Shown here: positions 9,551 to 54,316 of the stretch, one piece after another
Numbering within the stretch: position 1 is the stretch's first letter
Layout of the letters: each line of letters starts with the position of its first letter
NCBI GenBank assembly: GCA_010093605.1
Contig: MU004193.1
Location: 1,309,520-1,373,519, forward strand
Direction: 5' to 3'
DNA from: Lophium mytilinum
Lineage: Eukaryota
Length of the DNA stretch: 64,000 nt
Translations under genes and position numbers: made by a program
The notes under the pieces: model-generated
Database searches by the model: none
Seen by the model: the letters and a program-made list of their open reading frames with translations, nothing else
Told to the model about the DNA's origin: nothing

Positions 9551-9586
9551 GATTTGACCTTCAAGCACACTTTTCCATATCCAAGC

Positions 9587-32841: not shown

Positions 32842-35800
32842 ATGGCCGAAGAATGCATCAACCGAATCCCAGACGCTTCGGAGTCAAATAATCTACCAGG
32901 AGGAGGCCTCGGCCCTCGACTGGAATCCACCGAGGCATTTCAGGAGCCTCCTGATATCGAGGACGTCGAGTTCCGCTATTCTCTTCTTGGTGGGTCTCTT
33001 TGCCAACTTATGCCCCTCTCAATACCCCTACCTAAGTGATACTAGATAAGCTAAAGTCGGAGGAATGCATCTCAATACCTGAAGAGGCAAAGCAAAAGTC
33101 CAGGGATCCATACCCATATGTATCGTTTGGGGACGAAGGTACAACCGGAAGTGTCACCGCATACGGAGATCTCATGCAGATCACTCAGTTTCTCGAGTTG
33201 AGCCGCTCAGGTTTCTTCTCTGTGGATCTTCCTCAAGTGCCGGAGCCGTACTTCGTTCAGGATCGAACACAAACACTCATGGATATTCGCAACCGCAACT
33301 ACACAGGTATATATGCGATTTTACAAGGAGTAGACTTTCCCGATGAGTCTTCAGAAATGAAGGTAGAATTCATCCACGATCGGTGGCCACTCTTCACAAC
33401 GAAATACGACTATATCACATTCAAAATCCAACATGTCGCATTTCAAGGTACCGTCTTTCAGCAGTACCATTATTCGACGGAGAAGGAACCTTTTGTAGTC
33501 CCCTCAGGCTTCAAAGTTTCAATATCAGCGGACTTGCGAATACGAGACTTGGACTTCATCGATCCCCAATACAAATTCAACGAAGAAGACCAGCCATCAG
33601 ATAACTATTCTCATCGTCTCAGCAAGAGTAAACACGGTTTCATTCTGAAGCACACGGGCTTAGTGTCGGACGACGATTTGCAGCCGCAGAAGGGAACCAA
33701 TGATTCCGTCGCTTTGGCCGTCTCCATTTTTGTTAACGGCGAACTGCAGGAGCTTGTTCAAGATTCCGAAGAAGATTCCGAGGATTGGTATTTCACCAAA
33801 CCCGGGAAGGGGTTCTTGATGGAGCCGTCAAAGCCCTTGCAGATAACAGTGGCTTTCAAATTGCTGCCATGCAAGAAAGATTGGGATGGCGGCAATTTTC
33901 CGATCACACAGCACAGCCTTCGCGAAATGCACAAGATGTTGGAAGCAAGTTCATTTACAAGACTAAAGCTGTCAGAAAATGATCTTCACATGGACTTCGT
34001 CATGCGACGAAATTTGGAGCATATACTCTCGGTTTGCAGTACTCCAGTGCCTCATACGTGTCGAAAAGGCTGTGAGGACGGAAAGCTATGCCCAGAGAAG
34101 ACAGCCATTGCTTTAACATGTGGAGATTTGTCGGGACATCGAATCGTCACATCAGCAAGTTTGTAGGTCAGACAGGACTGCTCAATTCCTCATTTAGCTG
34201 ACTAGTCAGTTTTGCTTTCCAATTCCTTCTTTCGATGTTCAAGTACCTCGAGAAATTCCGAAATCAGGCAGCCGCAGAACGCCATCCTACTCATTGCAAG
34301 TGCAACCAAAATGACAGAGCCGCCTGCGAATGGATGTTCTCCGGCTTGTTACAACGAAGGATCAAGGAAGTATGCAGGATGCACTTAATCTGGATAGGGC
34401 AAGCTGAAATAGTTGATGCCTGTTTTGGAGCGAACTACTGGGCCACTGGCAAACAAATCGCTGCAGCAGACACCCCCAGCTTGAAAGCTCTGACGGACAC
34501 ACCATTTCAATTAATAAAACTTGCTGATTTCAGGACGATGTTCAAACATAGTAAGGACGAAAAGCTCGTTAAGGCTCTTGAGCCTCTTCTTGAGCCTCTT
34601 GTGGGGCCTTGGATCAAGTCAATAGACACTGATAACGGACGAGAGTTTTACGCGTTCCCTCATCCTACAAGTATCCGCGCTGGAGTTCAAGAATTCCGAT
34701 TAGAAGACCATGTTTGGATTTGGAGAGCCTTTCAGTCGGTCAAGAGCCTTGGCCTTGGGAGCAAGTTGGAGAATTTTGAGCGTCCCCTGAGGCCAGGTGA
34801 TCTCAACACGGAGAGAGCGGCAAAGATCCCCCTGTCCTCGGACTACTCTCCGACAGTGTTTCAACGACATGTCCTGCGACGATTCACCACAGAGAATCCT
34901 GTTTCTAGACAAAGAATGCTTGCTGTTGCACGGTCAACGTCTGATAACAGATTTTATCTCCATTCTCGAGATACTGCGTTGCTCTACACAGAAACCTCTT
35001 CATTTTTTGCCAAATCCGGCACTTTCTGGAAAGCTACTATCGATGCACAGAGATTCCATGACGAGAACCAGGATTCAAGATGGGATAACCCGTTGCGTTA
35101 CGCGCTGGCCTTCATGATGGGTAGAAAAGGCCTTCAGATCAACGACAGATTGCCGGATGATCTTTCTAATGCTGCGAAAGACCTTTTGCTGCAGAGTTCG
35201 TCTGCAAATGGGCTCTTCCCAGGCGCGCTGAACGCAGAGACCAAGGAGCCCGAGCTCTTCCGAAACGAAGCACAAAGAGACTTTTATTGGCACCGAACCT
35301 TCGAAGTTCCTTACATCCTCTGGCACTTCAATTCAGAAAACCAAAAGGCCGAGGATTTTGGGATGTCTCCACCAAATCCGAGCAACAAACCTGCTGGACA
35401 GACAAATGAAATACTAGCAATATCACTAGCCTCGGGGTTGCACTCTACTCAACTGGAGATGAAGAGATGGATGCCTTTCAATAACCTCATTGTTCAAAAG
35501 AGCATAGTTGACTTGTCGGATGAATGGTTGTACAACCTGCCGAGTTTCCTAGATTTCACGCCGTCTGTCAATGACAAAGACGATGCAGAAATTAATGAGA
35601 AAGACGCCACAGACCACCAATTCAGGGGTGTCATCATCGACATCCCCAAGACTGAGCACAACAAAAAAGGCAAAAGTCAACCATACAGTAATGAAGGTCC
35701 ATGGAGTAACTTCGAGGTCTTGTGCAACAAGGAGATGTATGAGAAGCTTAAAGAACGGCGTACAGCAAAGAGCGCCAAGAAGAGGCTTATTTGGTCTCCA

Positions 35801-37249
35801 AATGCTAACCACTCGACTAAAAGGCTCTGCTGCCTTACATCTACCGGCGATGAGAAAGAATCCTTAGGGCTGTTCTACGACAGACACCATGTTAAGCTGA
35901 AATACTTATTCGATGAAGTAACGGCAACTGCGAACCTATGGACGACCGAGTTCCATTTGTCTTCTTATGAACTGCTCAAACCTTATCAAGACAAACAAAT
36001 GACTGATCTGGTGTTTCTAGGAGGCGATAGGGTAATTAGGAAGGCAGGTACAAGCTTCCGATTCGTTGGGGACTTTTTTGATCGCTACTGGACTTGCCAC
36101 GTTCTTGAATCCGAAGAGGACCGCAATCAAGGAATTGCAACGCGCCTCAAAGAGCTTATCGAGCCGAAGAGGCTATTACCTAAGGTCGAGCGGCGCAAAG
36201 AGCCGTGGAGACAGCGGAAGGTGTTAGAACTTCTTCTGTTTGACCGAATGCTCAAGAAGATAACGGGGCGTTACGAAGACATGATTGCGGAGACGAGTAG
36301 GCGACTCAGTGATTTATTTCCGCATACGACCACTGGTAAAGACGACCCCAAGAATATCATATTAGTCTCAAATGGATTATTCTCCGCGCCGATGAATAAC
36401 GATGCCTACCTGACTTTTAGTAAGGAATGGCCTCCCTTTCAATATACTTTACAAGTCATGGAAGAAGACTTGAAGGACACCCTAGAGAAGATCGACTTAT
36501 GGAGGGACCGTGAAGTAGCTCGACAGCCTGAGAGACCGCGCTGGACAAAGAACGACGAGAGTAGATATCGGGCAACGATAACTAAGCTCACGACTTCGAA
36601 TAACAATGAGATCCGAGATTTAAATCACTACCGAGCCACCATCCAATCTCTGAGAACGTCCCTCACGAGCGGGCTGGAGTCAACACGAAACGAACTGAGC
36701 TTCCGAAGCGCAGAGAACGTGCGTTTCTTCACCTACATCACGGTCATCTTTCTTCCACTTGGATTTGCTACAGCAATTTTCAGTATGGGCGACTCTTCTC
36801 CTAAACGCAAGACCTTGAAGGCCATGGTTGTCACGGCTATCATCACTTTACTTCTCACTATTGTTGTGCTGGTCAGCGTGCACACCTTGGAAAAAGCGCT
36901 CTTTCAACCTGTTGTCAAGATTTCTCGCCGATTGTCAAGGAGGCGCGTAGCACGGCCGGACAAATCAACGCCCTACAATGGGAGCTCGTCGTTCGACTCG
37001 TTACCAGAGTTCTCGGAACGCTCATTTACACAGGATGAACGTGGGTTCCCTTGTAGAAGATCCAGTGGAACAGAGGACGTAGCATCTGAAAGTCAAGATC
37101 AACCGGATACACCTTCTGGTGGCGAGCATACTGCAGGCAGGATACCCGGGAGCTGGGGACTTTGGGTTGGAGATTCGCGAAGAAGGAGGGAAACAAGAGA
37201 AGCGAGGATGCCGGACGATCCCAGGCTTGAAGAAGGAAAGCCAAATTGA
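32842..37249 (+). CDS. Large (~1,430 aa) protein with C-terminal CorA-like coiled coil plus 2 TM helices and a large N-terminal globular region (3 exons)
   Basis: Introns at ~32990-33044 and ~34163-34209 join the 376 aa and 1004 aa ORFs. The C-terminus reads SAENVRFFTYITVIFLPLGFATAIFSMG plus a second TM helix; GDFFDRYWTC and WRQRKVLELLLFDRML are also present. Confidence 0.8.
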
Positions 37250-37654: not shown

Positions 37655-38715
37655 ATGGAACCCCTAGTGCCGCAGACGGACACCTCCTTCCTGAGCGGCC
37701 TCGCAAGGTCCGTTCAAGCTCTGAAATCACTCTCGGCTTTGAATGCCAAACGTCTTTTCAGGAAAGCATTCACAAATTCAATAAGCGTGGCTGAAACCAC
37801 CCAGTTTCCACAACTCTCCCCATTTCTCCGACGTAACCATCCGCCTCCTCGACGCCTTCTCTGAGCCCGTTTACTCACTCCACGCACACAAGCTGGTCCT
37901 GAGTGCACACTCGCAAATTTTTGCAAACATCTTCAACGAGGAGCTTCAGGTATGCCTTCCTGCTCCAACGTCTTCACGTACTTTCTCACGCCTCATAGCA
38001 ACGATGGGCCCCAGTAATCGACATCCACGACGACGACCCCACCGCTTTCCTGGCTATGTTAGAGTACATGTATAGCGGCAGCTACAGTATCCCCGCGTCT
38101 ACATCTAGCTCACGCAGCTCTTCCCCAACCGGATCCGCGGAAGTAGACATCTCAGCGACCGATCTGATCTTCCACACCCGCCTCCACGCCCTCGCAACCA
38201 CCTACGCCATTCCTACCCTCCAGAACCTGTGCGCTAGGAACTTCGCTCTTGCATCAACCCCACCAAAGTCACCATTTCCTACCCCAACATGGTTCACAGC
38301 CGTGGAGCTCCACTATACGCTCCTCTGCCCTTCTTCCTCTCTTTCATCATTGATGATCGACACACTGGACCCTTTGAGCCTCGCCATCGCGCGCCAGATC
38401 TACTCAAATCGCACCGTTCTTCTTCGCGCAAGCTTAGAGGCTAGGGCAATGCTGAGGGAGCTGTTGGTGCGGTTTCCGCAGCTAGGAGCAGACGTGACGG
38501 GTGAGGCGAGGAGGGCGTGGAAAGAGAGCCCAAGGGGAGGGACGTTGATCGCATGCAAAGGGTGTAGGAGGTGGGTGGTGGCGTGTGTGGCAGAGGCGAT
38601 GATTTGTTGGAGGTGTGGGGAGGGTGTCGTCGGTGGTATCCCAAATGAGGCGAGGGACGGAGACAAGAAGGTAAGTAGATTTGGTAAGAAGGGAGGGTTT
38701 GTGTTGGGGAGGTAG
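37655..38715 (+). CDS. BTB/POZ domain protein (3 exons) with C-terminal CxxC pair
   Basis: Spliced sequence reads FSDVTIRL...HAHKLVLSAHSQIF...IDIHDDDPTAFLAMLEYMYSGSY, with CKGC...CWRC near the end. Confidence 0.85.
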
Positions 38716-38935: not shown

Positions 38936-41900
38936 TCAAGCTCTTATCCCATCCCTCGGCAAAACCGTCCACCTATCCAAAAGCACGTCCACAATATCCT
39001 CCTCTTCCTCCTGTTTATCTTCCGGTTCATCTCCAATTGTCATACTTCCGCGAGAGTACGCCGACAACGGACCAAGCAGCCCTTGTCCGACGTCCTTGAC
39101 CAAGTCACGCTCTTCCACCACCGTCTTCTCACTAGTTCCTCGATCCTGTTCGGCATCAACCTTCTGTCGTTTCAGACCCCCTTGGGGGAAAGAGCCCTCC
39201 TCTGGCTCCACCTCCGCCACCCTCTTTGTAGCTTTCCCCTCCTTCTTAGCCTTGTCCACACGAATTCCAGTAATTTCATCTCGCCTTACAGGCGCCAATT
39301 TCGCATGATCAAACCCAGTCGTCTTCCGTAACGAAGGGCTTTCCGCATGAGGATTGGAAGGCGCAACGTTCTCGCCAGAAGTGCCGCTGCTGCTCCTCAC
39401 GTCCTCGATTTGCTCGGCTGCACGTGCAATAACAAAGCCAGTACTCGATTCGCGCCTTGCCGTTGGCTCACTCGGGGTGAGGATTAGACGATCGTGTCTG
39501 GGTAGTCGAGCAACGGGGTTGGTGACGAGGTGCTGAGGTGCTATCTCCATCACGCCCGAGACGCCAGACGGCACTCTTTCGCTGGTATCTTTTTTCCTCC
39601 TTTGAGCGTCAAGGACCCGTTGGCGGAAACCCTTCATCCCCAGTGAGGAGACAGGTTTGGGATCCGACGGTATCTTGCTAGTCGGCTTGGCGTAGTGGAG
39701 CGGATCATCCTCCACGAGCTCGACATCCTGGGCGTTGATCCCATGGCCGTTCTGCTGCACCAGCGCGGACACGTTCTTGATGGAAGCCTCAGGCTGAGTG
39801 CGCTGCGCCTGTGGGTTCTGCATATGCGCCGGGTTCCTGTCCATTGGCATGCCTGGCTGTAGCCCCAAGGAGCCGAGCATCGGCCCGGCCTGATGTCTTT
39901 GCTGCGTCACCATGTTGCTCGCGGCCAGTTGCTGTTGTTGTAACTGCAGCCGCATCTGGTACTGGCGCTGGGCTTCCTGCCGTCGGCTCTGCAAGTTCTG
40001 TGAGAGCGCGACAGGCTGGACGGGAAACGAGCCACCGCCAAAGTTCTGGTTGTATCCCTGCGGCATCGGCGAGCCTTCGGTCTTGTTCTTCCGCGCCGCG
40101 TCTCGTAGTATTTCTTTGTAGTCAGAGGAGAGATGAGAATGAGAGCTGAGATGAGATCGAAGATGATCAGCCAGTGGAAAACGACGCGGACAGTAGGAAC
40201 ATTGAAATCTCTTCGTGAGGATATGTTGCTCCAAGTTGGGTGCCGCAATTAGATCGCGAGCTGGGACCGGAGGGCCTTCGGGATCTTCCATATCGAGGTC
40301 AAGGTCCTCTTCGAGGGTGTCGGCTGGTGGATCGATATGACACGAGGGAATCTTTTCCTTCACATCGTACGCCACTCGTTTCTTCACTCGGGGACTATGA
40401 CGTATTAGCAATGTGATGGGTAGGCTGAATCTTTTCAATGTTCCAACTTACTTTCTGACCTTATCTTTCATAGACTTCTTCTCTTTGCGATTTGTCGAAT
40501 CCGATATATCGTTTTGTCGCCAGATACTAGACGGCGAAGAACGACGGGGTGAATCTGCGGGCCGCGCCGATGTTGAAATATCAGACGTGGAGCGGCCGCG
40601 ACTTCGCTTACGGTTACGATCTAGAGTAAAGCAAGTCAGTTTCAAAAGACGAGCAGAGGTAGGTGTGGTATACTCACCTCGATCAGGCGGCCTGAGGGCG
40701 TCTATTCTTCTATCCAGCTCGTCGCTTGATTGACGAGATGGGGGTGCGAATTCGGTATTGACTTCCTGGGGGACTATCTCCTCCATATCTTCCTCCTCGT
40801 CGGCCTCCGAGCCAGAATCCGAAATGAGAGCTTGTTCGCCGACCAGCCGAGCTATTTCTGGCCGGTTCGGGTCCATGAAACTCATCAGAACGGTGTCTCC
40901 CTGGCTCGGACGAGTGTTGCGCCGATTAGGTTTCTTTCGCTTCACATGAACATGAGGCGAAAGGGGTCTATATGGAGCATGGCCAGCAGACAACTTAGGT
41001 ATACGCTCTTCTGTCCTAGCGTCAACTCGAAGTTCCTCTTTCTCTTCCGAAGGCCGATACTCAGGGCTAGCTAGACTGAAGGCATCTTTCTGTGTGCTCG
41101 GCTTACGAGGGGATACATAACCCGATCCTTTTCTTTGATCTGCAAGGGTGGCATCGCCGTCCATGGTCTGACTTTTGGTGATCTTTGCCCCGCGGCGACG
41201 CTTCTTCGGTACGGGCGACTCGTCGCCATCAGTGTCGATAGCGGCAAGCCACTGTTCCTCTGTAAGCGAGTCATCTTGTCTAGCCTGGGTTGTCTCGCGA
41301 GCGCCATAACTATGGTTCTCTTCGTCTCGAAGTCCTGCCTCGGGGTTGTTGCGATTTTCTTCTGCACCACTGAAATTAAACGGGCTCTTAGCTTTCAGTG
41401 TATCTTCAACGTGGAGAAAGGAGTCAAAATCGAAACTCTCGAGGACATCCGGCCCATAAAATGATGGATAGCCAGGATCGGTGAACTGATCATGGTTAGA
41501 ATTGTCCGCTCTTTTCTCGGCATGATATCTCACCTCTTCGCCAATATTTCCGAATGGGGCACTGGAACCATGCATGGGAGGTCCTGGCACTGGCGGTGGA
41601 GGTGGTGCGGCAGCAAGTGTTTGTCCCGTACTTTAGGACGTCAATAGCTGCCACGGAATCTTGCTAGAGTAGGATTTTGCATAAACTTACTGGTCTCGAC
41701 TGTCTTCGGAATTCATGACAACGTCCGTATAAGTGGATGTCGGAGGAGCTTTGAGTAGTGACGATGATTGAGCCTGATCTCTATCCGTATTAGGTGTCGA
41801 TTCTGGACCTAGTAGTAGATTCGTTTCCTCATTTCCGTCACTGATGACATCCCCTTCTTGTTTCTTGGCATCAACATCTTCGATTTCCTCAGGCCACAGA

Positions 41901-44900
41901 TCACCTTGAGTTTCGTCGTCATCCGCATCATCGGAGGTCTCGTCTTCGGATGTCATAGTCTGCATACGCTCGAAATTGCCAATAGTAGAGTTACGAAACA
42001 GGTTCGTGGGTTCTTCTCGATCCACGTCGAGGTCTTTTGATGTCGGGGCGTCGATTTTAATTCGTGAGTAATGGAACTGATAACGGGGTTCTGCTGTCTG
42101 GAAGGGGGGTAACATATGGTTCTGGCTCTGGCCTTCCGTGGTCCCATCCTGGCTCTTGAGAGGTGTCTCGACTGTTTCTAAAGCATGCTGGTCAGCTTCT
42201 GCAGGTTCGTATCAAATAGTGACACCTGGCAGCACATACGCAAACGATTCTCCAAGCTCTTAACAAATCCTCTATTGGGTCTGCTCTTCCACCGCACCTC
42301 ATCGTAGCCACATCCACGACCCCGCTTGGTGCACCTGCTGCATATGGGCCTCGCGCCATCGCAGCTTGACTTCCTCTTCCGGCATGTCATGCACGCAACA
42401 CGCTTGTATGCATTAAGTCGGTTACCCTTCAGTTCATCAACTTCCTTTAACGACTCTTTGGTACCTGCCTCGCCATTGCTGCCACGAATCGCTGAGTTAT
42501 TCGAGTCCTGGGATTGCCTGGCTCCAATTAGCGAGCTGGAGAGCTCCGCGAGCTTGTAGGTTGATCCTTCTTTCTCTGCAACGGTGGCATTCTGGTCTTG
42601 TTGCTCAAGAACACGGGATTGAATTTGATGGCCTTGCTCACGGTCCTCGGATTGGACCCTCCCGTCTGATTCTTGCCTGCTTATCGTGTAGCGTCTTAAA
42701 CCTTCTTGCTCGAGAGCCTGCAGCTTTTGTGCATATTCCATTGGCGTCCGATTCTGAAACTCGACCTCTGTATCCGGCTTTAGTAATAGTTGGCTAGGCT
42801 CCTCCCCGTGATGCGAAGCTGGACCGGTAGAAGTGTATCCGGTAGAGGAAGAATATTTTGGAGGACCACTCCATGGGTTGTTGAAATCGATACCATTGTA
42901 GCTGGTCATGCCATCGTGGACACTGGCGGGAAGAGCAGCCGACTGCTGCCAAGTAGACGCGCCGTAGGCTTGCTGCTGCTTGGTAGCATAAAAAGCTGTT
43001 TCTGATGCGCAGATGTCTCCACCCCGCCGATCTACGCGGTCTCGATCCTCCAGTGCCAATCTGAGGCGTTTTTTTTGCGACTCGAGGAGCATGAGTTGCG
43101 TTTCGTAGTCTTGTAGTGCTTGGCTTTTCGGGGCTCCAGTCTCAGGCGCATTGACTCCTGCGACTGACGCAAGGGTGGCAGAGCTTTGCCATGGACTCTG
43201 AAATACAGTTTGGGCGAGTTCAAAGCGAGAATTTGACTTCTGAGAACTCTGCAGAGGTTCCTTCTTGTTTGGGATAGCCTGCTTCCACCTTGGCACATTT
43301 GACTCAGCCTCCTGCACAGGAGAGATGCCTCCAGGTGCAGTTCCTCTTTTAGCTGCCGCGATCTCTCTCTTCGTAGGGTGCTTGAGGACCATGAGTGACA
43401 TCTGATAGTCACGGAGCGCCTGGTAATCTATAGGTCCGGGTGTATATTGAGCTGCCTGGTGGTTTATAGGTCCAGGTCTGTATTGAGCCGCCCTTGCTTC
43501 CTCTTGCTGTTGAGATTCCTTCTGGCGCTTTTTCCATTGTTGCTCGAGTAGCATGGGTTGATATGAGTCGGCTTGTTGTAAGTGATTTTGAAGCATCGGG
43601 TTCCCTGGTGATGGTAGCATTGGTGAGGTCTGTTCATACGACGGGTATGTTCGCGTTTGCTGGGTCGGAAATGGCATCGACTGATCTGGAAGCTGTACCT
43701 GGACAGCGCCAGGCAAGCTAGATTCGTTGTGATTACTCGACTGAGGGACTTCTTGCACATCTTCTATTCGTATCATCTTTAATCGCTTCTTATTCTCTTG
43801 GGGCCCACCGCAAATTAGTCTTAGCTGATACTCGTGTAACGCATGATCTTTAGCTTGAGTGTCTAGTTGGCCATGGGTGTTGCCACTCTCGTTCTCGTGG
43901 GCGTCGGCCGGCTCATGGTCTAGTGTCGCGCTTGAATTCGACATGCTCATGCGACGATCGAAGACTCGTGGTTCAGCAAAACGTGGATTAGCAAAATGTA
44001 TATCTGAGGTCCGTGGATCAGGTATTCGAACGTCAGAGGCTCGAGAGTCTGGTAGCTGGGCGCCAGGTTCCTGTGAAGACGAGCATCTTCGTTGATATGG
44101 GTCGCCACTAGACCGAATTCCAAAACCCCTGGTCGCAGTATCTAGCTCCTCATCTCTCCCCTCAGGTGGAGATTCCAGCTTATGACGTTCCAATCTCCGT
44201 TTGAGAATGCGATGGAACTGCTTAGGATTGATGAACAAGGGCGGGTCTTCTACTGGTCCATTGTTGATGCCTGTGCGCGCAGGTCTTTTGCTTTCCGATG
44301 GATCGAGACCATGAGGGTTGGAAAAGGTCACGGGAAATTCGTCGTCGCCCGATGCACCCGCCAAGAATGTATCAAAGTCGAAATTTGCGAGAACATCGTA
44401 ATCATCCGCGTTGCCAAGATCAAGGCTGGGTGCGTTGCTGGATACATTATCACTTACCTTCGAAAGAGACGCATCCATTGGCGTCAACGGTGTCGAAGGC
44501 ACAGGAGTCGGCTGGGACGCGATACGCTGAATTGCCATTTGTTGTTGCATTTGCTGGTAGGCCTGGTTGGCAGTGTATTGACTGGCATGTTGCTCAGCCT
44601 GAGCCTGGGCCTGCGCCTGCGCGTATCTCTGAGTCTGAGCCTGAATCTGAGCTGAAAATTGAGCCTGAGCTGGTTTTTGCCGCGGTCGCATCTGCATTTG
44701 TGATAACATGTGTCGTTGCTGCTGAGCCTGCGCCTGAGCCTGCGCCAGCACGTTCCTCTGTGTCTGAGCTGAAGTCTGAGATGAAGCCTGAGCCTGAGCA
44801 TACTTTTGCTGCGGTTGCATCTGCATTTGTGATGGCATGTGTGGTGGCAAGCAGCTTGCAGTCGGAGTTGGGGGCTCCGCTGTGAAACTGCTCAATAATC

Positions 44901-46397
44901 CACCTCCTCCGCTCCGCCGTCGGCCTTCCTCAGCTTCCTCTTGCGCCTCTGCCATCTTTAGTGCAGCCAGACCTGCACCTGCTTCGATATCGCTTTCGGC
45001 ATTGGTATTGTAGATATCAGGAGAAGTGTATGGCGAGATCGCCGGGGGCTTGATGGGACTGTTGTGTATATCTGGAATGAGAGTATGCGTTTTTGGGTCC
45101 ATATGCCGGGGAGATCGTGCCACGTCGTCTCCCCTTCGATAGCCCGGCCGAACTAGAGATTCCTCAGCAGGTTTCTGTTGTTGTGATAGATGCAATGCTT
45201 CTTTCTGCTGGGCAGCCGGAAGAAGGAGCCCTTGTCTCGGATTTAGCGCTTCTTCTGAACCTAAATCAACTTCAGAACGCGGAGGCACAGCGTCCATGGC
45301 GATTAGCGAGTCGATCGATGGTAGTGTTTGCTGCTGCACAAGCGACTGAGCACTGCGATAGGTTTTAGGTGAAAGGCCTTCCTCCGCCTTAGCCATAGCA
45401 GGATGACGAAGTATATCTCTCTCAATCTTCACGCAGAATCGATGATAGGCTTTATGCACGCGACGTTTCGAACGGCGAGCGGGTGTGGCCCCCTCAACAA
45501 GGCTTTGGAAAGACTGGATCCTCCTCAAAAGCTTTTGGACATGCTTGGTGCATTTTAGAAGGTCCTCGGGGGTGATTGGTTCGTCATCGCTGCCTGAATC
45601 GGACCCCCCAATGGTATCATCGGAATCGTCGGACAAAGGATCAGGGGTATTCCCCTTTAAAGCAGTAATCTTTCTTATGGAGACAGATGCTGCCAAAGGC
45701 GGATGCGCTATAAGGTTGATGGTAGAAGTTCTTGAAGGATTTGTCGAGCCGCGAAGGGTTTCGGAGTCGTCCAGAGAGATATTGTCAAGCTTTTTCTCTA
45801 GCAAGCTGAGGTTCTCCAATGATTCTTGATGACGTTTGTGAAGAGCACGGATGTTCTCTCGCTCCTCACGAAGCAGGGAGGCTTCCTTTCTGAACAGAGT
45901 TAGAATACATCTAGGCAGACACCGTGGAGTACAAACCCTCTGGCCCTATCTCCAGCAAATGAAAGCACTTTGAGAAGAAGCAACAGACTTGTCTTCAGAC
46001 TGTCTAATCGTCTCCTCATCAACTCGACTCTTTGCTCTTTGAGCGGCCATGCCAGCCGGCCGAGAGTCGTGATTGATTTCTTTCCATCTTTTCCAATCTT
46101 GGTTCGTTTTTCAACGACCTGGCGAATATCACCGAAGACAGTCTCACATCGTTTCAGGATGTTTTCTGCATCGTTCAGAGCTGCTTTCGAAGCTAAGCAC
46201 CTCGTGTCTTCCTCTTTCAGAACGTTTCCGACGCTGTCCAGCACATTGGCAGTGAGAGCAACATCACCGGCGATATCGGTGATATCCTGATCCGCGCGTG
46301 AGGATGATTCTGCGAATGTGTATAGCGTGGTAGAGAGTTTCACGCCAGCGCCTGCGATGCCAATAATTGACGCCGTAAGCCCTATCAGTTCTGCCAT
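38936..46397 (-). CDS. ~2,400 aa mosaic protein: HeLo-like N-terminal domain, Q-rich region, Zn2Cys6, C2H2 and regulator-like fragments (6 exons)
   Basis: Five canonical introns (~45935-45890, ~42239-42178, ~41690-41631, ~40678-40622, ~40450-40394) join the 165, 1213, 142, 380 and 500 aa ORFs in frame. The N-terminus is MAELIGLTASIIGIAGAGVKLS...LAWPLKEQRV..LDSLKTSLLLLL. Also CMTCRKRKSSCDGARPICSRCTKRGRGC and CSYCPRRFPLADHLRSHLSSH. Confidence 0.8.
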
Positions 46398-47113
46398 GAT
46401 TATCAGGCTGCAACCGTGCAGATGGCGCCGTCAAAGGGATGATGGCGAGGGCTAGAAGCTCCTATCCCAGCATTGTAAGGGAAGAGACACGAAAAGACAT
46501 ATTCAAATCACACTGAATGGAAACAAACTGAGAAATGGCGGTGCTCAAGGAAATTGAGAGGCGGGGAAGAGAGCTGAGGACGTTGGAAACCGGGGGCTGT
46601 GCACTTTGGACTGGATGCCTGGCGCTTCCTTGCAGTGCAACCACCGAAAGATCAAACCGTATGTAGGTCCTCGTGAAAGTGTAATAACAGCATTCTGATA
46701 GCTAGTCTATTTCTCTGGGGCTACTCGCAAACAGAGTTGCGATATACGTGGATTGAGTCGTGAGGTTGCTAGGCCTTGGCAAAAGCGGGATGCCTAGGTG
46801 AGACGGAAGGAGGTGGCAAGCACAACGACCACCGAGACTTGAGACGTCCGCCATCATGACAACGCTGTTATGGCTCCACTCCAACCTCAATACAGCTTGA
46901 TATTGCATCCAACAATCGACTGCATCACATTGAGCTACCGCAGTCGCTCCAGACGTCCTGCCATTTGCTCCTTCGCGGCCTCTGAGCCCCATCCCACTGA
47001 CTCACCAGCGACTCATCCCTCTATCACTCTAGAGCTCACCTGATTGCGCGCATCAAGCTTAGGCCTTGTTGCCACCATATAAGACCAACAGGGCCCTTCT
47101 TTCAACAGCAAGC

Positions 47114-49138
47114 ATGCCGAAGAAACACAACCCGGTCTTTGCCAAACCTCAAGGCTCTGTCCACCCTTCGCTGGAACAGCGACCGATCCTATCCAACCCA
47201 TCCGCCCCGAAGACAGTCAATGAACGGATAAACCAATTGCGTCGAGAGCAAGCGCCAAGGGCTACGGCAGAGAGGAGGAATGAGATAATAGACGTGGTAA
47301 CTCAGCGCACTGTCCCGCCGGCGTTGCGGCATATCTTGAACATACCAGAGATTGACCCTCCGAAACCAAAGCCAGGCAGACCTCAAGGACAAGTTCGAAC
47401 GCGACGTCCTCCCCCAGGCCCAGCGCCACCTGCGAGCTGGCTTAGCCAAAGCCAATACGCCCCGCCAGAAGCGCGGAAGCTTCCAACATACTCGAGATAC
47501 GGTATATCAAAATTTGGGAGACTTGCGACTACACATGATGGAGAACGGGTACGTTGGTAGCCTTGGACAAACGCACTCCTCCAGTCAATATGGATTCTGC
47601 AACTTTGGTCGCGTTCATTGCTATAAATTTGGTTGCATACAATTAACCGTGGATTCTTCCTTCATCACCAGCAATAGAACTCCCAAACAGCATCTCAAGT
47701 GCTGCAGCTTCTCAAAATCCACAGACACGGAAATATAGACCTACGTATGTCTAAGTTACTAATGTTTTCGCAGAAACTACCACAATCAAAGAGTCTCGTC
47801 GACCTATGCATGAAGACACTAGCATCCAACTGGCATTGGCTTGCAGAATTCGAGCAACATTATCTTTCCACCCTACCCATTCATCTGAAAGAGCATCTGC
47901 TTAGCTACTTGTCCCTTTACGGAGCAGAAGGGTCGCCGGACCTGAAGACTTTCAAGCTGCTCTTTCTCAATGAGACCGAAGTTGACGGAGGGACTGGTAG
48001 CAGTGAGGTCAAGCAACTGGATCTTACTGGCCTGTTGAGTGACGCACTCACATTGTCGGATATTAACAAATACATATCTCGCCAGCGCTCTGCGGTGGAG
48101 CCCTCACATGACTCAAGCACGACTTCTTCCGCTCCCGAGAATCTCGAAGACGATGTAGTAGAGTCCTGGGAAGACGAGATCGACTCGCCACATGCCACGT
48201 CACTTCAGCCTTTCCGTTTCCCAAACCTCACCCGCCTTTCTCTTGCGAACCCGGGCCATCAAGCCTCATGGACTGCGCTGCTTGCCACTTGTTCGAGCCT
48301 CAAACATCTGACCCACCTTTCACTAGCTTATTGGCCCACACCTTCAACAACCCCTAACGCTGCTACTACATCCATGGTGTCCAAACACGCGAAACCCGTT
48401 GCGCTCGGCGGAAGCCACATGTATTCTCAGCTCGATGGCGACTGGCACGAGGCAGCTAATATACTTCGCCGACTCAGCCTCGTAACATACCGCCTACGCT
48501 GGCTTGATCTGGAAGGCTGCGATTGGTACAAAGCGCTGATATGGGATTCGCCCAGTTACCAGAGTCAAATAAGGCGGGGCCAAGGGAACAATCGTCCCCA
48601 AGGGGTGCGTAGGTTTCCTGACTTCTTTGAGTCCCCCGAGAATCATCCAGACGAAGACGACTGGGATGCCAAGAATCATGGTAGTCCCGGCCCAGACTGG
48701 AACGGGGCGTGGGAGCGTGTTGAGACTCTTGTGCTCAGTCAAGGCTGGGTGCCGACCAATATCGGTGCTATCCAAGGCCTGCCGTCTAGCGCAATAGCCG
48801 TGTATCTCCTCACTTGGCTGAAGAAGAAGGAGGAGAAGCGCAAGAAAAAGGCTAGGGCGGGCCGGGAGCGAAGCTTGAGCAGTTCGATGGGGAAAATGAG
48901 TCTTTCCAATTCCTCGAGTGGTATGGATAGTAGCCTGAGTCCACTGAGAACGCCGAGTGGTATCACATGTGGGCATTGGGTGGAGAAGGAAAAAGACATA
49001 AGAAATATCGAGGACCAGATCAAGCTGTTGCGGAGAGCAGGCCGTAGCTTGAGGATCAAGTTTCTTCATGGCTGGGGCGAAGGGGACGACGATAGCGAGG
49101 ACGAGGGAGATGAGGAGGTCGGTAAGGGGGAGATGTAG
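47114..49138 (+). CDS. Conserved fungal protein with BC/SOCS-box-like motif and LRR-like repeats (2 exons, intron ~47549-47773)
   Basis: Starts MPKKH. Contains KSLVDLCMKTLA...LPIHLKEHLLSYL, then FPNLTRLSLA, LTHLSLAYWP and LRWLDLEGC. Confidence 0.7.
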
Positions 49139-49847: not shown

Positions 49848-52199
49848 ATGAGGAAGCGGGCTGCATCCGAGCTGCCTACCTATGAGGCCACGGCTCGTGT
49901 CAACGGAGAGCTCTCCAAAATGCTGGACCCCTTGGAAGAGCATTCTAAGCATGCTGAATCATCAGAAAGTGCCTTAGAAGCTTCTGAAACTTCTTCTGCA
50001 TCATCACCATCATCGTCATCGTCATCTGATTATCCGGAAAACTCAAAAAATGGCCCTAGACGGTCCAATACGCGTTATTGCAACGGGTGTGATTATATGA
50101 TACCCGAAGTGTACATTTCGGGTAAAGAAAGGGATATTGATCAGATCGGTACTGAAAACTTCGGGCACCTTCTTTAGTGGGGGAAGGATACGAGTCTGCA
50201 ACGCCTCAAGGACGGTGCCAGCTCTGGATGTCAAGGCTGTGAGCTATTCTCTGACGCCATCACTACGTACAAAGATGGGGGCTTGCCGCTGGCCGAGCTG
50301 ATTCAGCTGAACACCAGAGTCGAGCTTTGGAGAAAAGCAGGGGGGTATTCAATTGAAGTGATTAAGCTGCCGCTCCTTCCTTTTACTGGTCTGCGGTCGT
50401 TCGACCTGGAAACTTTCCGCGACAAATGTATGCGCACAGTGACGCTCAACGCATTCTCAACATGCGGTACCCCCCGAGGCTTTCCCATTGCTGATCAACA
50501 CATAGACTTACACGGTGCCAAAACGTGTAACGGCTCACAATACTACGATATCAAAAGTCCCTTGCCTGCAGAAGACACGTCGTCTAAACAGACTTTTCGG
50601 GCTCTTAAGGACTGGATCAGCGATTGCATACACTACCATGCATTCTGCAAACCAAGTAAAACACAGGACCTGCCAAAGCGAGTTCTTGAACTAACCAACA
50701 CCCACATTTATCTTCGCGAGCACTTGGGGATATCTCATGTTTGCGCTTGTCTTAGTCATTGCTGGTGCGCGAAAGGCCCGGCGCTCAAACTTACCAGGGC
50801 AACCACTGAAATGTTCAAATGCGGCGTGCCTGTTCGTGAGCTGCCGAAAACGTTCTCAGATGCGGTTCAAGTTTGTAGGAGACTCAACATTCACTACCTC
50901 TGGATTGACGCACTATGTGAGAGTGGCTACTGTTAGCAGTGTTGCTCTACCGCTAATCCAAGCACAAACAGGCATCCTACAAGAAGACGATCAGGATGAC
51001 TGGAAGGAAGCTGCCACAACCGTGGCTTCTATCTACGAGAATGCCTTTGTCACGATTGCTGCTTCGGGGTCAAAAAGTAGTGAATCGGGTTGCTTTTCGT
51101 GGGTCGAGCCTCAATACAAAGCCAGAAGAATGCAACATACCGGGCTGTACGTTAGGCAACGGCCCGGGAAGTTTCCACGTCCGCGAATCCCTTCGGAACT
51201 TCATGATACGGCCTCGGATTGGCCGCTATTAGGTCGGGTTGGGTGTTTCAAGAGAGACGGCTATCATCTCGAATAATCCATTTTGGCAAGAACCAGGTGT
51301 ACTGGGAGTGCAGATCCAAGTTCCTATCGGAAGACGGCTCACAAAATGGAGATAAGCCATTGACAGATGGGTCGGAGAAAGACTATTTCCTTGGTATCCT
51401 TTCTCTGAGCTACCCAACTACAGATCCTGTGACGATTTGGCAAGCAACCGTAAAGGATTATCCGATGCTGCAACTGACTTACGAGAGCGACCGCTTACCG
51501 GCTATCGCGTCCATAGTCGAGCGCATGATGCGAATTCGGAAGGGCGATTCTTACTTTGCGGGAATGTGGAAAACTAGTCTACTTGGAGATCTTGCTTGGG
51601 TCTCTCACGATGGCGGCGTTCGCCCAAGACCTTCGACATATGCCCCGTTTTGGTCATGGGCAGCATCTTCAGGGGGTATTGACTGGGAGCCGCTTTGTGA
51701 ATCAAAATCACCTACAACACAAGTAGTTGACATCAACTATACTGCTGTTGGACCCCCTCACCTCGGAGAAGTACGAAACGCCAGCATCACGCTCAGAGGT
51801 TCCACTTTCACAGCCACATATTCGAGGCTGAAATATGGTCGACCTCAAAAATTCATGATTAAGAACATTTACCCCGCGTGTGAAGTCATCAAAGTGCGGA
51901 CAGGTTTTTACGGCCCCGAGAAGGACTACGACTACTCTACAAGTGAACGGCCGGTCAAATCAGGGGATCCTGTTACAGTCTTATTCCTTGGTTTCATTAC
52001 ACCCTACACATTAGTAGGGATTGTTCTTCGAAGTTCTTCAGAGACAGAGTTTGAGAGGCTTGGGCTCCTACAACTTGACCATGTAAAAACTGAATCGCTG
52101 ATGAAGGGACCAGCAGATGGGCCCAAAGCCAAAGCTTATGAGAAGATAGTAAATGATCATATTGCGTCACTACCTATCCAGGAGCTCAGAATTATCTAG
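49848..52199 (+). pseudogene. HET-domain gene with in-frame TAG (50175-50177) and a frameshift (~51237)
   Basis: Motifs LPKRVLEL, CLSHCW, PKTFSDAV, YLWIDALC|ILQ, IYENAFVTIAAS, WPLLGR/GWVFQER (split across frames), DRLPAI and APFWSWA. Confidence 0.8.
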
Positions 52200-52714
52200 A
52201 TTGTTTGCCGTAGCAATGGGCACCGAGTGAGATGGCTCTCACGGCCGGGCAGGGAGCAATCTGGAGCAGCATCACCGCACTTGCTATCATCTCCCATTTG
52301 TTCAAGTACGGTGTAATATTATGCTACTTTGATTCGCCCTCTCTCCCTACGCACGGTAATGATACAAATCGCCGTGAGTTCAGACTTCTTCCACGCTGCT
52401 CTTGCTCCATCTTTGAGACACCTCCGATGACACCAGCTGAAAGTCTTCAACAGGAACGAATCACACGTCGGTGTAACTCAAGTATAGTATAATCTATAGA
52501 ATCTGTTGAATAGTTCTTTCCCCATACGTACAACCTCGATATTCGGTAGAATAATTACAGCGCTTACGCAGCTGCACCATGAATGCTGCGCCACCACCAG
52601 CCTGACCAAACCCTGTCACGTCCCCCAGCCTCCCGCAGACCTCCAGGCTTCCTCTACCGTTTTCTCAAGGTTCCTCGACAGTCCGATTCCTATATCCCAC
52701 AATCTTCTTCAGCC

Positions 52715-54316
52715 ATGTGGCTGCTCAACACCGACTCTCTCACCCTTGAATTTTTCGTGCCTAGCCGTGTCCCCGATTATGTCATCCTCTCGCACCGTTG
52801 GTGCGCGCAGGGCGCCGAAGAGTGTACCTTCGACGACATGACCTGGGCTACTGTTTTGAGCGAAACCAGTCCAGTACGAAAGAAAGAAGGCTTTTCTAAA
52901 GTGCAGGGCGCTTGCAGATTGGCTGCGCGAGACGGCTACGCTTGGATTTGGATCGACAGCTGTTGTATTGACAAGTCCAGTTCTGCAGAGCTGCAAGAAT
53001 CCATCAATTCTATGTGGAATTACTACGCGCAATCGAACATTTGCTATGTGTACATGGCAGATGTCCCCAATTCAGAAGTTGGTTGGGGCGAGAGCTTCCA
53101 CAGGAGCGAGTGGTTCACCCGGGGCTGGACATTACAAGAGTTGCTGGCGCCGACTTGCGTTGAGTTTTATACGGAAGACTGGGCACCTATCGGTACAAAG
53201 TTCGAAAGGCACAAGGAGATTGCGGAAATAACGAGGATTGACCCGGATATCCTCGTTCGGACCCAGGATATTGATCTATTCAGTGCTGCGCAGAGACTTT
53301 CATGGGCAGCGCATCGGAAAGTCACTAGAGAAGAAGACGAAGCATATTCACTTCTAGGCCTGTTCGATGTCAATATGCCGCTTCTTTACGGAGAAGGCCG
53401 GGAAAAAGCTTTCATCAGGCTCCAGGAAGCAATCTACAACTCCACGGCCGACCACACTCTATTCTTGTTTCGCTACAGCGCGCATCAGGACGACCAGCCT
53501 TTATTAGCGGACTCGCCGACACGCTTCTGCGAGAGGCAAGACTGTACTTCCTGCGTAGCGGACGTAGTCCAGTGTCTACCTTCGAATGAACGGTATACCG
53601 ACTTCATTGCGTCTACAAGGTGGTACCACCAAGCCCATGAGCAGATAATGACAACTGTCACGTCCTTGCGAAATGAGATTTCAACAACGCTACTACTACT
53701 GGATTACCATGTCGTTGCCGACAAACTTAAGTTTTTCGATGAGCATGATCGGCAGTCACTTGTCAGAGTAACTCATGTAGTTGTTCTCAACCATGCCCTA
53801 GAAAAATACGAGAATGGTGCCTTATGCTTACTACTCCGCCGAGGGCCATCCTTAGAAGCCTTTCGACGCATCAAAGCCTTCCCGGCTTATCTACCCCACC
53901 TCGGGGATTTTGCATCGGTGATGCAGAAAACCAAAATTCTTATTTGTCCTGGCCCAGGCACTCTGGGACAAAACAACTGCGCCAATACTATATTTTCAGT
54001 GGCAGATTCATTCCTCGTTCAGACGTGGAGTGCCAAAGGCGGTATAACCCACTCGATATTGCCCGTGCCAGGACAGCAAAACACAGACTTCGAGGTCCAA
54101 ACGGACGTTCGAACGAGGAACTATAAGAATCCAAATCTTGCGGCGGCAGTTTCGTGCTTGATTGTTGACCCTTCCGATTCAAGCTCGGTGTTTTCCGTGC
54201 GACTGATATGCACTGACAAAACGTGGTCGATTAGAGAAGTCTCTGAGACGAAGGAGGGAAAACGGCCACGGAAAAAGCGCGTCGTACTTCCTTCGACTGG
54301 TTTTGCTGATCGTTAA
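52715..54316 (+). CDS. HET-domain protein of the HET-E N-terminal type, possibly C-terminally truncated
   Basis: Motifs MWLLNTDSLTLEFF, YVILSHRW, WIWIDSCCIDKSSSAELQESINSMWNYY, SEWFTRGWTLQELLAP and REEDEAYSLLGLFDVNMPLLYGEG. Confidence 0.92.
   Translation: MWLLNTDSLTLEFFVPSRVPDYVILSHRWCAQGAEECTFDDMTWATVLSETSPVRKKEGFSKVQGACRLAARDGYAWIWIDSCCIDKSSSAELQESINSMWNYYAQSNICYVYMADVPNSEVGWGESFHRSEWFTRGWTLQELLAPTCVEFYTEDWAPIGTKFERHKEIAEITRIDPDILVRTQDIDLFSAAQRLSWAAHRKVTREEDEAYSLLGLFDVNMPLLYGEGREKAFIRLQEAIYNSTADHTLFLFRYSAHQDDQPLLADSPTRFCERQDCTSCVADVVQCLPSNERYTDFIASTRWYHQAHEQIMTTVTSLRNEISTTLLLLDYHVVADKLKFFDEHDRQSLVRVTHVVVLNHALEKYENGALCLLLRRGPSLEAFRRIKAFPAYLPHLGDFASVMQKTKILICPGPGTLGQNNCANTIFSVADSFLVQTWSAKGGITHSILPVPGQQNTDFEVQTDVRTRNYKNPNLAAAVSCLIVDPSDSSSVFSVRLICTDKTWSIREVSETKEGKRPRKKRVVLPSTGFADR

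Follow-up and report, generated by a model that had tools for sequence, protein, structure and literature searches.

HeLo-like and MLKL-like helical heads are cell-death executors in fungal, plant and animal immunity. To our knowledge, such heads have so far been seen either alone with an amyloid tail or fronting NOD-like receptors (NLRs). Plant NLRs also carry integrated decoy domains, such as the WRKY domain in RRS1. Here we describe a gene of Lophium mytilinum in which what appears to be the same kind of head is joined to transcription-factor parts and to a conserved tail that, by prediction, folds back and clips to the head, an arrangement that extends across the family to which the gene belongs. 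The gene, BU16DRAFT_529203, lies in a stretch of 64,000 nucleotides (nt) of assembly GCA_010093605.1 (contig MU004193.1, positions 1,309,520 to 1,373,519 of the forward strand); this whole stretch is referred to below as the window, and all coordinates are given within it. We tentatively read the product, at slightly less than even confidence, as a self-latched, multivalent, multi-motif transcription regulator. Its parts are known, while their combination, in which regulator cargo lies between a HeLo-like head and a docking tail and a nucleotide-binding oligomerisation domain (NOD) is missing, appears undescribed.

The coding region occupies 38936..46397 of the minus strand (as do all features of the gene given below), with the start ATG at 46397 and the stop at 38936-38938. 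An earlier note on this DNA, made from the sequence alone, had placed it at exactly these coordinates. Open reading frames (ORFs), splice sites and contig joints define seven exons, which join into a coding sequence of 7,131 nt. The translation is identical at every letter to the deposited 'hypothetical protein BU16DRAFT_529203 [Lophium mytilinum]' of 2,376 amino acids (aa), which a word-based protein search recovered at 100% identity (hereafter P0001). The earlier note had spliced five ORFs through canonical introns into a single protein of about 2,400 aa; the one gene and the four introns were real, but there are seven exons and six introns, and the product has 2,376 aa where five exons would give about 2,412.

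All six introns have GT..AG ends (CT..AC on the plus strand) and are spliced out in the contigs of run X1. This is the sole public run containing the stretch; it is only presumed to be RNA, yet its contigs show the spliced form. Intron 1 (45890..45936, 47 nt) has its contig joint at 45889/45937, and intron 2 (42178..42239, 62 nt), which falls directly after ...SLENRL, at 42177/42240. Contig joints likewise mark intron 3 (41631..41690, 60 nt) and the in-frame introns 4 (41486..41533, 48 nt, absent from P0001) and 5 (40621..40677, 57 nt), the last two lying within the fourth ORF of the earlier note. Intron 6 (40395..40451, 57 nt) contains the in-frame stop that had separated the fourth and fifth ORFs of the earlier note. 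Branch-point-like motifs (CTAAC, CTGAC, TTGAC or CTAAT) are present in the introns that separate ORFs.

Two X1 contigs cover the gene, one at 38950-42904 with a depth of 99.6 and one at 42892-46700+ with a depth of 94. They share 13 nt (42892-42904) inside the open frame of exon 2, and this frame crosses the contig break, spanning 1,216 codons of the exon. Continuity there follows from the 13-nt overlap together with the similar depth and the unbroken ORF. A single transcript across the junction is very likely, though not strictly proven at that point, and the spliced contigs fit one gene, in agreement with the single transcript first envisaged. The second contig extends 596 letters past 46700, upstream of the ATG, and represents either a long 5′ untranslated region or fusion to a transcript from the plus-strand ORFs at 47063-49138, which diverge from the gene and match no Pfam family. 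The depth of a contig is no basis for ranking genes by expression level. The product of this one expressed gene is, at 2,376 aa, largely disordered, and its composition is disorder-prone throughout, with 55-79% of each 100 aa made up of P, E, S, Q, K, G, R, D, N or T.

The protein begins with a conserved N-terminal module. Exon 1 (45937..46397, aa 1-153) encodes its HeLo-like (PigL_N) four-helix-bundle part, as indicated by PF17111 and by the helices of an AlphaFold2 model. PF17111 is called HeLo-like in the fungal NLR literature (PMC9815663). In Pfam searches of the exon translations, for which absences are stated at E <= 1, PF17111 matched aa 2-139 over profile positions 1-130 of 209 (E 1.6e-5). 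The HeLo-like N-terminus proposed in the earlier note is borne out to the extent of this match, but the score of 24.9 bits lies below the cut-off of 27.2. Six family relatives match the same profile at 22.7-26.8 bits, all below the cut-off, and precomputed database annotation assigns PF17111 to P0015, P0152, P0153 and others. The remainder of the N-module (aa 154-315, 45406..45889) is delimited by 38-53% identity to family members and by the AlphaFold2 model, and consists of a long helix, an acidic disordered linker and a helical hairpin at 261-314 (KHVQKLLRRI / RVHKAYHRF).

The AlphaFold2 model of aa 1-325, built with a 55-row family alignment, has a mean predicted local distance difference test score (pLDDT) of 77.3 and a predicted template modelling score of 0.60. 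It places bundle helices at 2-31, 36-61, 71-96 and 121-152, mostly with a pLDDT of 83-96, followed by the long helix at 157-190, the disordered acidic stretch at 207-249 and the hairpin at 261-286 and 295-314. Foldseek found nothing for this model in the PDB at E <= 1e-3. A wide structural search returned MLKL (4btf_A) at rank 13, with Z 9.3 and a root-mean-square deviation of 2.4 Å over 100 residues at 19% identity, along with the MLKL N-terminal domain 6ux8_A (Z 8.8) and the plant coiled-coil (CC) domain 4m70_A (Z 8.7). The top matches were designed helical bundles at Z 10.7, and such scores are common for helical bundles. HET-s-type HeLo chains were absent from the 50 matches shown, which does not exclude them. 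The modelled head is consistent with a HeLo-like/MLKL-like bundle, with a PF17111 score below the cut-off and a fold score within the range of generic bundles.

The N-module is what unites the family. An exhaustive phmmer search with aa ~170-1369 of P0001 gave 380 matches at E <= 1e-3, of which 150 were listed. Among the matches listed, at least 39 are confined to the first ~150 query residues (P0001 170-320), and the aligned part of these relatives lies at residues ~170-320 of their own sequence, or at ~1-170 where the model is missing the first exon. At least 110 of the listed matches are confined to a Zn2Cys6 region, and P0011 is the sole listed match at query positions 951-1010 (77% identity). 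Local blastp of P0001 against 23 proteins, comprising 22 family members and the non-member P0011, showed aa 1-~315 to be colinear at 38-53% identity in 12 members with a full N-terminus, and 10 N-truncated models were 32-56% identical over the corresponding part. Past aa ~315, family members share only short motif matches with P0001: the NF-YA motif in P0004 and P0016, the DYQ motif in P0020 and P0035, the FDFDSFL motif in P0016, P0020, P0026 and P0053, and a zinc cluster in P0005, P0006, P0010, P0020, P0035, P0042 and P0118 that is 34-41% identical.

Named members, found in a word-based search with aa 1-330, come from Lentithecium fluviatile, Cucurbitaria berberidis, Dothidotthia symphoricarpi and Ascochyta lentis, all Pleosporales, and all are annotated as hypothetical. 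Word-based searches for full-length relatives at 2129-5000 aa and at 1306-4158 aa returned only P0001 itself; these negatives are weak, because relatives of 1,318-1,636 aa (P0020, P0035 and P0036) that phmmer found were missed there. The Lophium copy is by far the longest family member. Taken together, the alignments show that the gene belongs to an unnamed Dothideomycete family defined by an N-module, a clade-specific middle and a DIVDxLLxxWT end. Relatives that share both termini and differ in the middle, where they carry Zn2Cys6 clusters, C2H2 pairs, Myb, GATA or the NF-YA half, are as the earlier note had anticipated.

Two further proteins share parts of the N-module. P0176 of Cladophialophora carrionii (663 aa), which the search with aa 1-330 also returned and which is annotated as hypothetical, is a distant relative of the head that matches aa 1-127 only, at 41% identity, and carries a precomputed V-SNARE/synaptobrevin annotation (PF00957); by that annotation, the same kind of head is joined there to a membrane-fusion part and not to regulator parts. 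The metagenomic protein P0003 (1,012 aa) is 56% identical over a 113-column alignment to P0001 257-351, which holds the helical hairpin, and has an entirely different body. An RSLSSxDNGW motif, which P0004 and P0020 have too, occurs in this body, as does a PHD-like Cys/His cluster recognised by eye, for which Pfam reported nothing at E <= 1e-3.

The second constant element is the C-terminal motif, DIVDVLLDRWT in P0001 (aa 2357-2367, 38966..38998), which is marked by its conservation and by a predicted latch onto the N-module. The strict form [DE][ILV][IV]D.[LM]L..WT stands 14-20 residues from the end in 16 of 40 rows, P0001 included. The ends of 18 further sequences add the strict form in P0155 and variants in four others (P0042 DIVDFLLGEW, P0118 DIVDMLLDQW, P0153 DIVSLLLGMW and P0156 DIAIVLLEKW). 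Among rows with a complete N-terminus, 11 of 18 have the tail, and two of the seven that lack it (P0023 and P0046) are cut-off gene models, since they stop inside a C2H2 finger. Seven residues (D, V, D, L, L, W and T) do not vary among the 12 tails that were aligned.

Structure prediction suggests what this motif may do. When exon 1, the first 172 codons of exon 2 and, as partner, the last 45 codons were given to ESMFold2 as separate chains, the latch scored 0.69, and the best of three controls scored 0.01; the mark applied to this score is reached by 51 of 78 solved complexes and by 2 of 108 mismatched pairs. The runs have at least 80% of their contacts in common, the partner has a pLDDT of at least 52, and the score is lost when the second chain is replaced. 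The partner residues in contact (I27, V28, L31, L32 and R34-L38) are those of the conserved motif, and the tail is predicted to touch head residues 67-76 and 140-152 and long-helix residues 164-171. Within aa 1-199, the 18 contact residues of the N-module have a mean column entropy of 0.97 against 1.48 for random sets, and only 45 of 10,000 random sets were as low. In this prediction, helices 3, 4 and 5 of the N-module form a conserved groove into which the C-terminal motif docks.

Between head and tail, P0001 is studded with short elements that resemble parts of transcription regulators. The first is an acidic-hydrophobic FDFDTFL motif (aa 657-663, 44362..44382), found by regular expression and recurring in many family members. 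It is followed by a helix like A1 of NF-YA/HapB (aa 702-728, 44167..44247), the region in which the earlier note had rightly recognised half of the HapB/NF-YA core: CBFB_NFYA matches at 29.8 bits (cut-off 27) over profile positions 2-25 of 56 only. These residues align to residues 2-28 of the 64-residue HapB chain 4g91_A (E 3.2e-6), from the solved CCAAT-binding complex of Aspergillus, match the short NF-YA peptides of 6qmp and related PDB entries, and have counterparts in P0004 and P0016. The piece is the half that binds the HapC/HapE-type histone-fold pair, and the DNA-reading helix (positions ~30-56) is absent.

Three xDYQxxLMxL-like motifs are present in P0001, along with several basic clusters resembling nuclear localisation signals (NLS); the repeated xDYQxxLMxL motifs, which the earlier note had labelled Som1/Flo8, match no Pfam family. 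An xEYQxRLxCGG...KKRLKM variant (aa 831-871, 43738..43860) was found by blastp to P0020 697-737 and is also visible by eye in P0004 and P0016. An LRDYQMSLMVL motif (aa 979-995, 43366..43416) was located by regular expression, and the LQDYETQLMLLESQKKRL motif (aa 1076-1099, 43054..43125), located by blastp and tblastn, resembles P0020 (68% identity over 25 aa) and P0035 (59% over 27 aa). Self-blast of P0001 gave no off-diagonal match, the repeated motifs being too short for this method to register. Further along lies a second acidic-hydrophobic copy, FDFDSFL (aa 1583-1589, 41414..41434; regular expression and blastp), whose region is identical to P0016 over 13 aa (100%) and 39% identical to P0020 over 49 aa.

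Zinc-binding elements complete the cargo. An internal Zn2Cys6 cluster, with its linker and the start of a dimerisation helix (aa 1316-1380, 42149..42405; tblastn), spans intron 2. As stated in the earlier note, it is a genuine cluster: Zn_clus matches at 33.6 bits (cut-off 21), and all six cysteines are present in a CX2CX6CX6CX2CX6C pattern that begins at aa 1320. The Fungal_trans domain (PF04082) that might accompany it was not found by Pfam in the exon translations. The lone C2H2 finger that had been noticed (aa 1954-1976, 40139..40207) has a complete C-x2-C-x12-H-x3-H pattern but reaches only 20.8 bits on the zf-C2H2 profile, under the cut-off of 25.2 (E 4.9e-4), and the last exon gave only generic C2H2 finger matches among PDB sequences. 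The statement that nucleotide-binding domains and repeats are missing also held, as no exon translation contained NACHT, NB-ARC, WD40, ANK or TPR.

The cargo differs across the family. Among 39 relatives, Pfam found Zn_clus in nine, C2H2 pairs in five, Myb in two, GATA in one, the NF-YA half in two (P0004 at 38.6 bits and P0016 at 23.5 bits) and PigL_N in six, and in 19 of the 39 it found no domain. The Zn2Cys6 clusters, C2H2 pairs, Myb and GATA domains of relatives score above the Pfam cut-offs. The order of motifs also varies: DYQ, FDFD and zinc cluster in P0020, against FDFD, NF-YA, three DYQ, zinc cluster and FDFD in P0001. A DYQ variant precedes NF-YA in P0016 and follows it in P0001 and P0004. 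P0004 (706 aa as modelled), the nearest long relative, has the module, the NF-YA helix, the DYQ variant and the tail, and is without the Zn2Cys6 cluster, the piece shared with P0011, the second FDFD motif and the C2H2 finger.

A maximum-likelihood tree of the shared aa 155-315 (33 rows, quick search, with support only from the Shimodaira-Hasegawa-like approximate likelihood ratio test, SH-aLRT) groups the cargo types. It recovers a C2H2-pair group with or without zinc clusters, an FDFD group with or without DYQ, P0035 with P0036, and a clade of P0001, P0002 and P0004 with an SH-aLRT of 99. Two members of the C2H2 group, P0006 and P0010, align colinearly for ~600 aa at 50% identity. Judging by this tree, cargo shifts between old paralogous clades and not freely among close relatives. 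With cargo types forming clades and the C2H2 clade colinear over ~600 aa, the pattern looks less like a free accretion of fragments, of the kind the earlier note had envisaged, than like stable paralogous regulator subfamilies.

Two pieces of the Lophium protein can be traced to ordinary transcription-factor families. P0001 1316-1380 is 60% identical to P0117 46-110 over 65 aa without gaps (E 3e-21). P0117 is a canonical factor of 859 aa with its Zn2Cys6 cluster at the N-terminus, where P0124 also has its cluster, and among the matches listed about a hundred similar sequences show 55-65% identity to this stretch. The Lophium cluster is far nearer to such canonical factors, at 60% identity, than to its own family's clusters, at 34-41%. 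The match to P0117 continues for 10 residues beyond the junction of exons 2 and 3 (LENRL/QTVETPLKSQ against LENRLAQVEELLKSN, the stroke marking the junction). Four of five small matches examined (P0021, P0022, P0032 and P0047) diverge immediately after ...E[AE]RL, as expected from unspliced read-through of an intron at that spot. We infer that the Zn2Cys6 piece was copied at the DNA level from such a gene, taking in its first exon, the intron and the beginning of the following exon.

The second piece (aa 1122-1177, 42820..42987) is recognised by sequence identity to P0011, a C2H2 plus Fungal_trans (PF04082) factor of 988 aa and of a common Ascomycota type. P0001 1122-1177 is 82% identical to P0011 247-302 over 56 aa, with a core of 39 aa at 87% (E 6e-18); tblastn confirms 42883-42987 of this interval, and none of the other 178 proteins compared contains the piece. 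The X1 contig break at 42892-42904 and a bump in depth to 121.7 (bin 42705-42971; elsewhere 94-99.6) both fall inside it. They may reflect a near-identical stretch in another transcript of the same organism, and hence a recent copy. The fingers of P0011 are 56-69% identical to the C2H2 pair of the Pleosporales clade, and this similarity, together with the 56-aa piece, suggests that the P0011-type factor family fed two branches of the family. A C2H2 remnant of a P0011-like capture was sought upstream of the 56-aa piece and rejected, as no Cys/His pattern was visible by eye in aa ~975-1030. The NF-YA helix is older, as P0004 and P0016 share it. These alignments show the two Lophium pieces to have separate putative donor families of transcription factors. 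Indeed, the prediction of the earlier note that different windows would hit different intact relatives agrees with the matches of the Zn2Cys6 cluster (60% over 65 aa), the P0011 piece (82% over 56 aa) and the HapB-like helix at 702-728.

We propose that these elements work together as follows. The latch would close the protein into a loop, or chain molecules head to tail. The NF-YA-like helix could engage the HapC/HapE histone-fold pair; an isolated 29-residue NF-YA peptide binds NF-YB/C with a dissociation constant of 0.7 µM (PMC6900064), which suggests that such a helix can bind the pair alone. As the CCAAT-reading helix is missing, it might either compete with HapB or bring the HapC/HapE pair to other sites. 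The Zn2Cys6 cluster, the C2H2 finger and the basic clusters would direct the protein to DNA and the nucleus, cofactors would be recruited through the FDFDxFL and DYQ motifs, and the N-to-C latch would gate access to the motifs in the loop. On this account the mosaic grew as pieces of transcription-factor genes were captured at the DNA level, in at least one case recently.

Several observations weigh against this self-latched regulator. The latch prediction comes from one single-sequence ESMFold2 job in which the N-module was split into two chains, and its calibration excluded peptides and disordered chains. An AlphaFold2 model of the short member P0015 (15 rows) was poor, with a mean pLDDT of 48, and its tail showed only a helix at 572-581, a bump in confidence of 48 compared with ~30 nearby. 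The regulator parts are partly degenerate, NF-YA being without its DNA-binding half and the C2H2 finger being alone and below threshold. In the captured Zn2Cys6 stretch, Ser-Ser stands in place of the Leu-Lys/Arg of canonical relatives, and the dimerisation helix has a proline within its first turns. Across the family the N-module is better conserved than the DNA-binding parts, which is unusual for transcription factors and would better fit a sensor or an executor. The P0011 piece can be called a recent capture, and the capture given a direction, only tentatively. Finally, aa 1381-2376 were searched with Pfam and PDB sequences only.

The alternative that survives best is that the family consists of ordinary, lineage-specific transcription factors whose N-module oligomerises or binds a partner, whose motifs came by descent with loss, and whose N-to-C contact is an artefact of prediction. 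The stability of cargo within clades is what such factors would show, as are Zn2Cys6, C2H2-pair, Myb and GATA domains above the Pfam cut-offs and the NLS-like basic clusters; helical bundles give many unspecific fold matches, and the AlphaFold2 model of P0015 places no tail with confidence. Against this, the seven tail positions that are invariant in 12 members stand at most ~20 residues from the end and co-occur with the N-module, which implies a function tied to the module. The predicted interface also falls on the most conserved surface, and the Lophium Zn2Cys6 cluster, at 60% identity to canonical factors and 34-41% to its own family, points to separate acquisition and not to descent. We regard this explanation as fairly unlikely.

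A further possibility is an integrated-decoy sensor without a NOD, in which a latched, membrane-attacking HeLo-like death head is wired to a loop of regulator mimics, like a tripwire. If a parasite effector or protease bound or cut the mimics, the latch would slacken and the released head could kill the cell. In favour of this reading, the head matches PF17111 (E 1.6e-5), the family that serves as a pore-forming effector in fungal NLR signalling, and MLKL (4btf_A, Z 9.3) is among its structural matches. Head and tail are conserved around a variable middle, the latch scored 0.69 against 0.01 for the best control, and the regulator parts are partial or degenerate (the NF-YA half, the lone C2H2 finger and the proline in the Zn2Cys6 dimerisation helix). 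The same C2H2 factor family contributed to two clades, and three HET-domain ORFs lie 4-16 kilobases (kb) upstream. Yet PF17111 stays below its cut-off in P0001 and in all six matching relatives, the fold match is no better than that of designed bundles (Z 10.7), and Foldseek gave nothing at E <= 1e-3. Cargo is stable within clades, with ~600 colinear aa in the C2H2 clade, as it would be in working regulators. There is no nucleotide-binding domain in the protein and no NLR among the 26 neighbouring ORFs scanned, and a tether of 2,000 aa would give an intramolecular latch a weak advantage.

We judge this sensor unlikely. A more detailed form of it, a NOD-less guard, seems to us slightly less credible again. 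In this version the DIVDxLLxxWT helix would hold an MLKL/HeLo-like head shut around a 2,000-aa loop of mimics of central regulators, namely the HapB helix, the Zn2Cys6 exon and the C2H2-factor fragment. The effector of a mycoparasite or virus would bind or cut these mimics, unlatching the head so that it kills the cell, and each clade would carry its own set of baits. The integrated decoy that the earlier note had suggested is upheld in the mosaic origin and the variable cargo, but the protein is not of the NLR type and is without a nucleotide-binding domain.

It is also conceivable that the protein acts as a dominant-negative sponge that titrates HapC/HapE through its NF-YA helix, and cofactors through FDFDxFL and DYQ, without productive DNA binding. 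Only the subunit-binding half of NF-YA is present, and this motif is kept in P0004 and P0016. In PMC6900064, NF-YA peptides bind NF-YB/C on their own, and a stapled derivative prevents the trimer from assembling and from being recruited to DNA. An intact six-cysteine Zn2Cys6 cluster is present as well, however, and the conserved head and latch would be left unexplained, and we consider the sponge quite unlikely. Weakest is a merged model of two neighbours, a HeLo-like gene and a Zn2Cys6 gene starting near the contig break, for which the overlap of merely 13 nt between RNA contigs (42892-42904) and the normally N-terminal position of Zn2Cys6 clusters (P0117, P0124) could be cited, but which is highly improbable given a frame open across the break through 1,216 codons of exon 2, similar contig depths (94 and 99.6) with each contig joining half of the repeated piece to unique flanks, a break that coincides with the stretch shared with P0011 and is sufficiently explained by it, and relatives that hold the head and the C-terminal motif in single proteins.

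The genes that flank it are ordinary ones. A BTB/POZ gene (PF00651, 29.6 bits) at 37785-38715 on the plus strand converges on it, with ~220 nt between the stop regions, and further flanking ORFs are CorA-like (34202-37249) and NmrA-like (29314-30318). Upstream come ORFs without an assignment and, beyond them, HET-domain (PF06985) ORFs at 50178-52199, 52583-54316 and 61566-62930, 4-16 kb away, of which two are read from the plus strand and the third from the minus strand; HET genes are frequent in this fungal class, and their proximity may mean nothing. NACHT and NB-ARC occurred in none of the 26 other ORFs of at least 200 aa in the 64-kb window, a scan that leaves smaller or heavily spliced genes outside. 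An ORF with a fungal rhodopsin domain (PF20684, 172.6 bits; 3060-4259, plus strand) and one for a GH64 beta-1,3-glucanase (480.8 bits; 9551-10855, plus strand) are ordinary genes, unrelated to the finding.

Returning to the self-latched regulator that we favour, its parts raise several wider points. If the clip is true, it would represent a new and simple way of regulating such a head. The gene would also be a clear natural example of how long disordered regulators grow by the capture of exons and short motifs that belong to other regulator genes, and it suggests that an NF-YA helix by itself can be redeployed to contact the HapC/HapE pair. Dothideomycetes are a fungal class with many plant pathogens, and even if the head has lost its killing role, the family would still be an uncharacterised class of regulators among them. 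Literature searches found no paper for the motif strings of P0001, nor for the old Pfam family name combined with transcription factor and Zn2Cys6. The portions available of the literature on PF17111, and on HeLo-like domains together with integrated decoys, dealt with NLR contexts only. Within the limits of these searches, the impression in the earlier note that no described system is alike holds.

How the protein relates to known systems depends on which of its parts is considered. With Gal4-type Zn2Cys6 plus Fungal_trans factors such as P0117 and P0124, it is 60% identical across the cluster, the linker and the opening turns of the dimerisation helix, and it has an intron right after ...RL, where truncated models of that family diverge. 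It differs in that the cluster lies at aa 1320 of 2,376 and not at the N-terminus, in the absence of Fungal_trans, and in the proline within the dimerisation helix. With NF-YA/HapB, it shares the NF-YB/C-binding helix (PMC6900064), to which aa 702-728 align, whereas the second, DNA-reading helix is absent from P0001.

The plant integrated-decoy NLRs likewise fuse a defence-type module to copies of parts of cellular regulators, and so do the fungal NLRs with non-canonical domains (PMC12258605). The pieces integrated in P0001 derive from host protein families (P0117 at 60%, P0011 at 82% and HapB at E 3.2e-6). In contrast to those receptors, P0001 has no NB-ARC, NACHT or repeats, and carries many pieces instead of one domain. 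MLKL, the necroptosis executioner, offers a four-helix head that superposes on that of P0001 (4btf_A), with further helices after it, and both invite the notion that the remainder of the protein keeps the head inactive; P0001 is without the pseudokinase domain, and the structural score does not rise above that of unrelated bundles.

The HeLo/HELL effectors (HET-S and HELLP; PF14479 and PF17111) resemble P0001 at both ends, having an N-terminal helical bundle whose first helix is hydrophobic and rich in glycine, and ending in a short, conserved regulatory motif. No NLR partner was found near the P0001 gene among the 26 ORFs of at least 200 aa in the 64-kb window, and ~2,000 aa of transcription-factor-like sequence separate its head from its tail. 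Where the tail of these effectors is an amyloid-forming repeat, that of P0001 is an acidic amphipathic helix predicted to dock on its own head.

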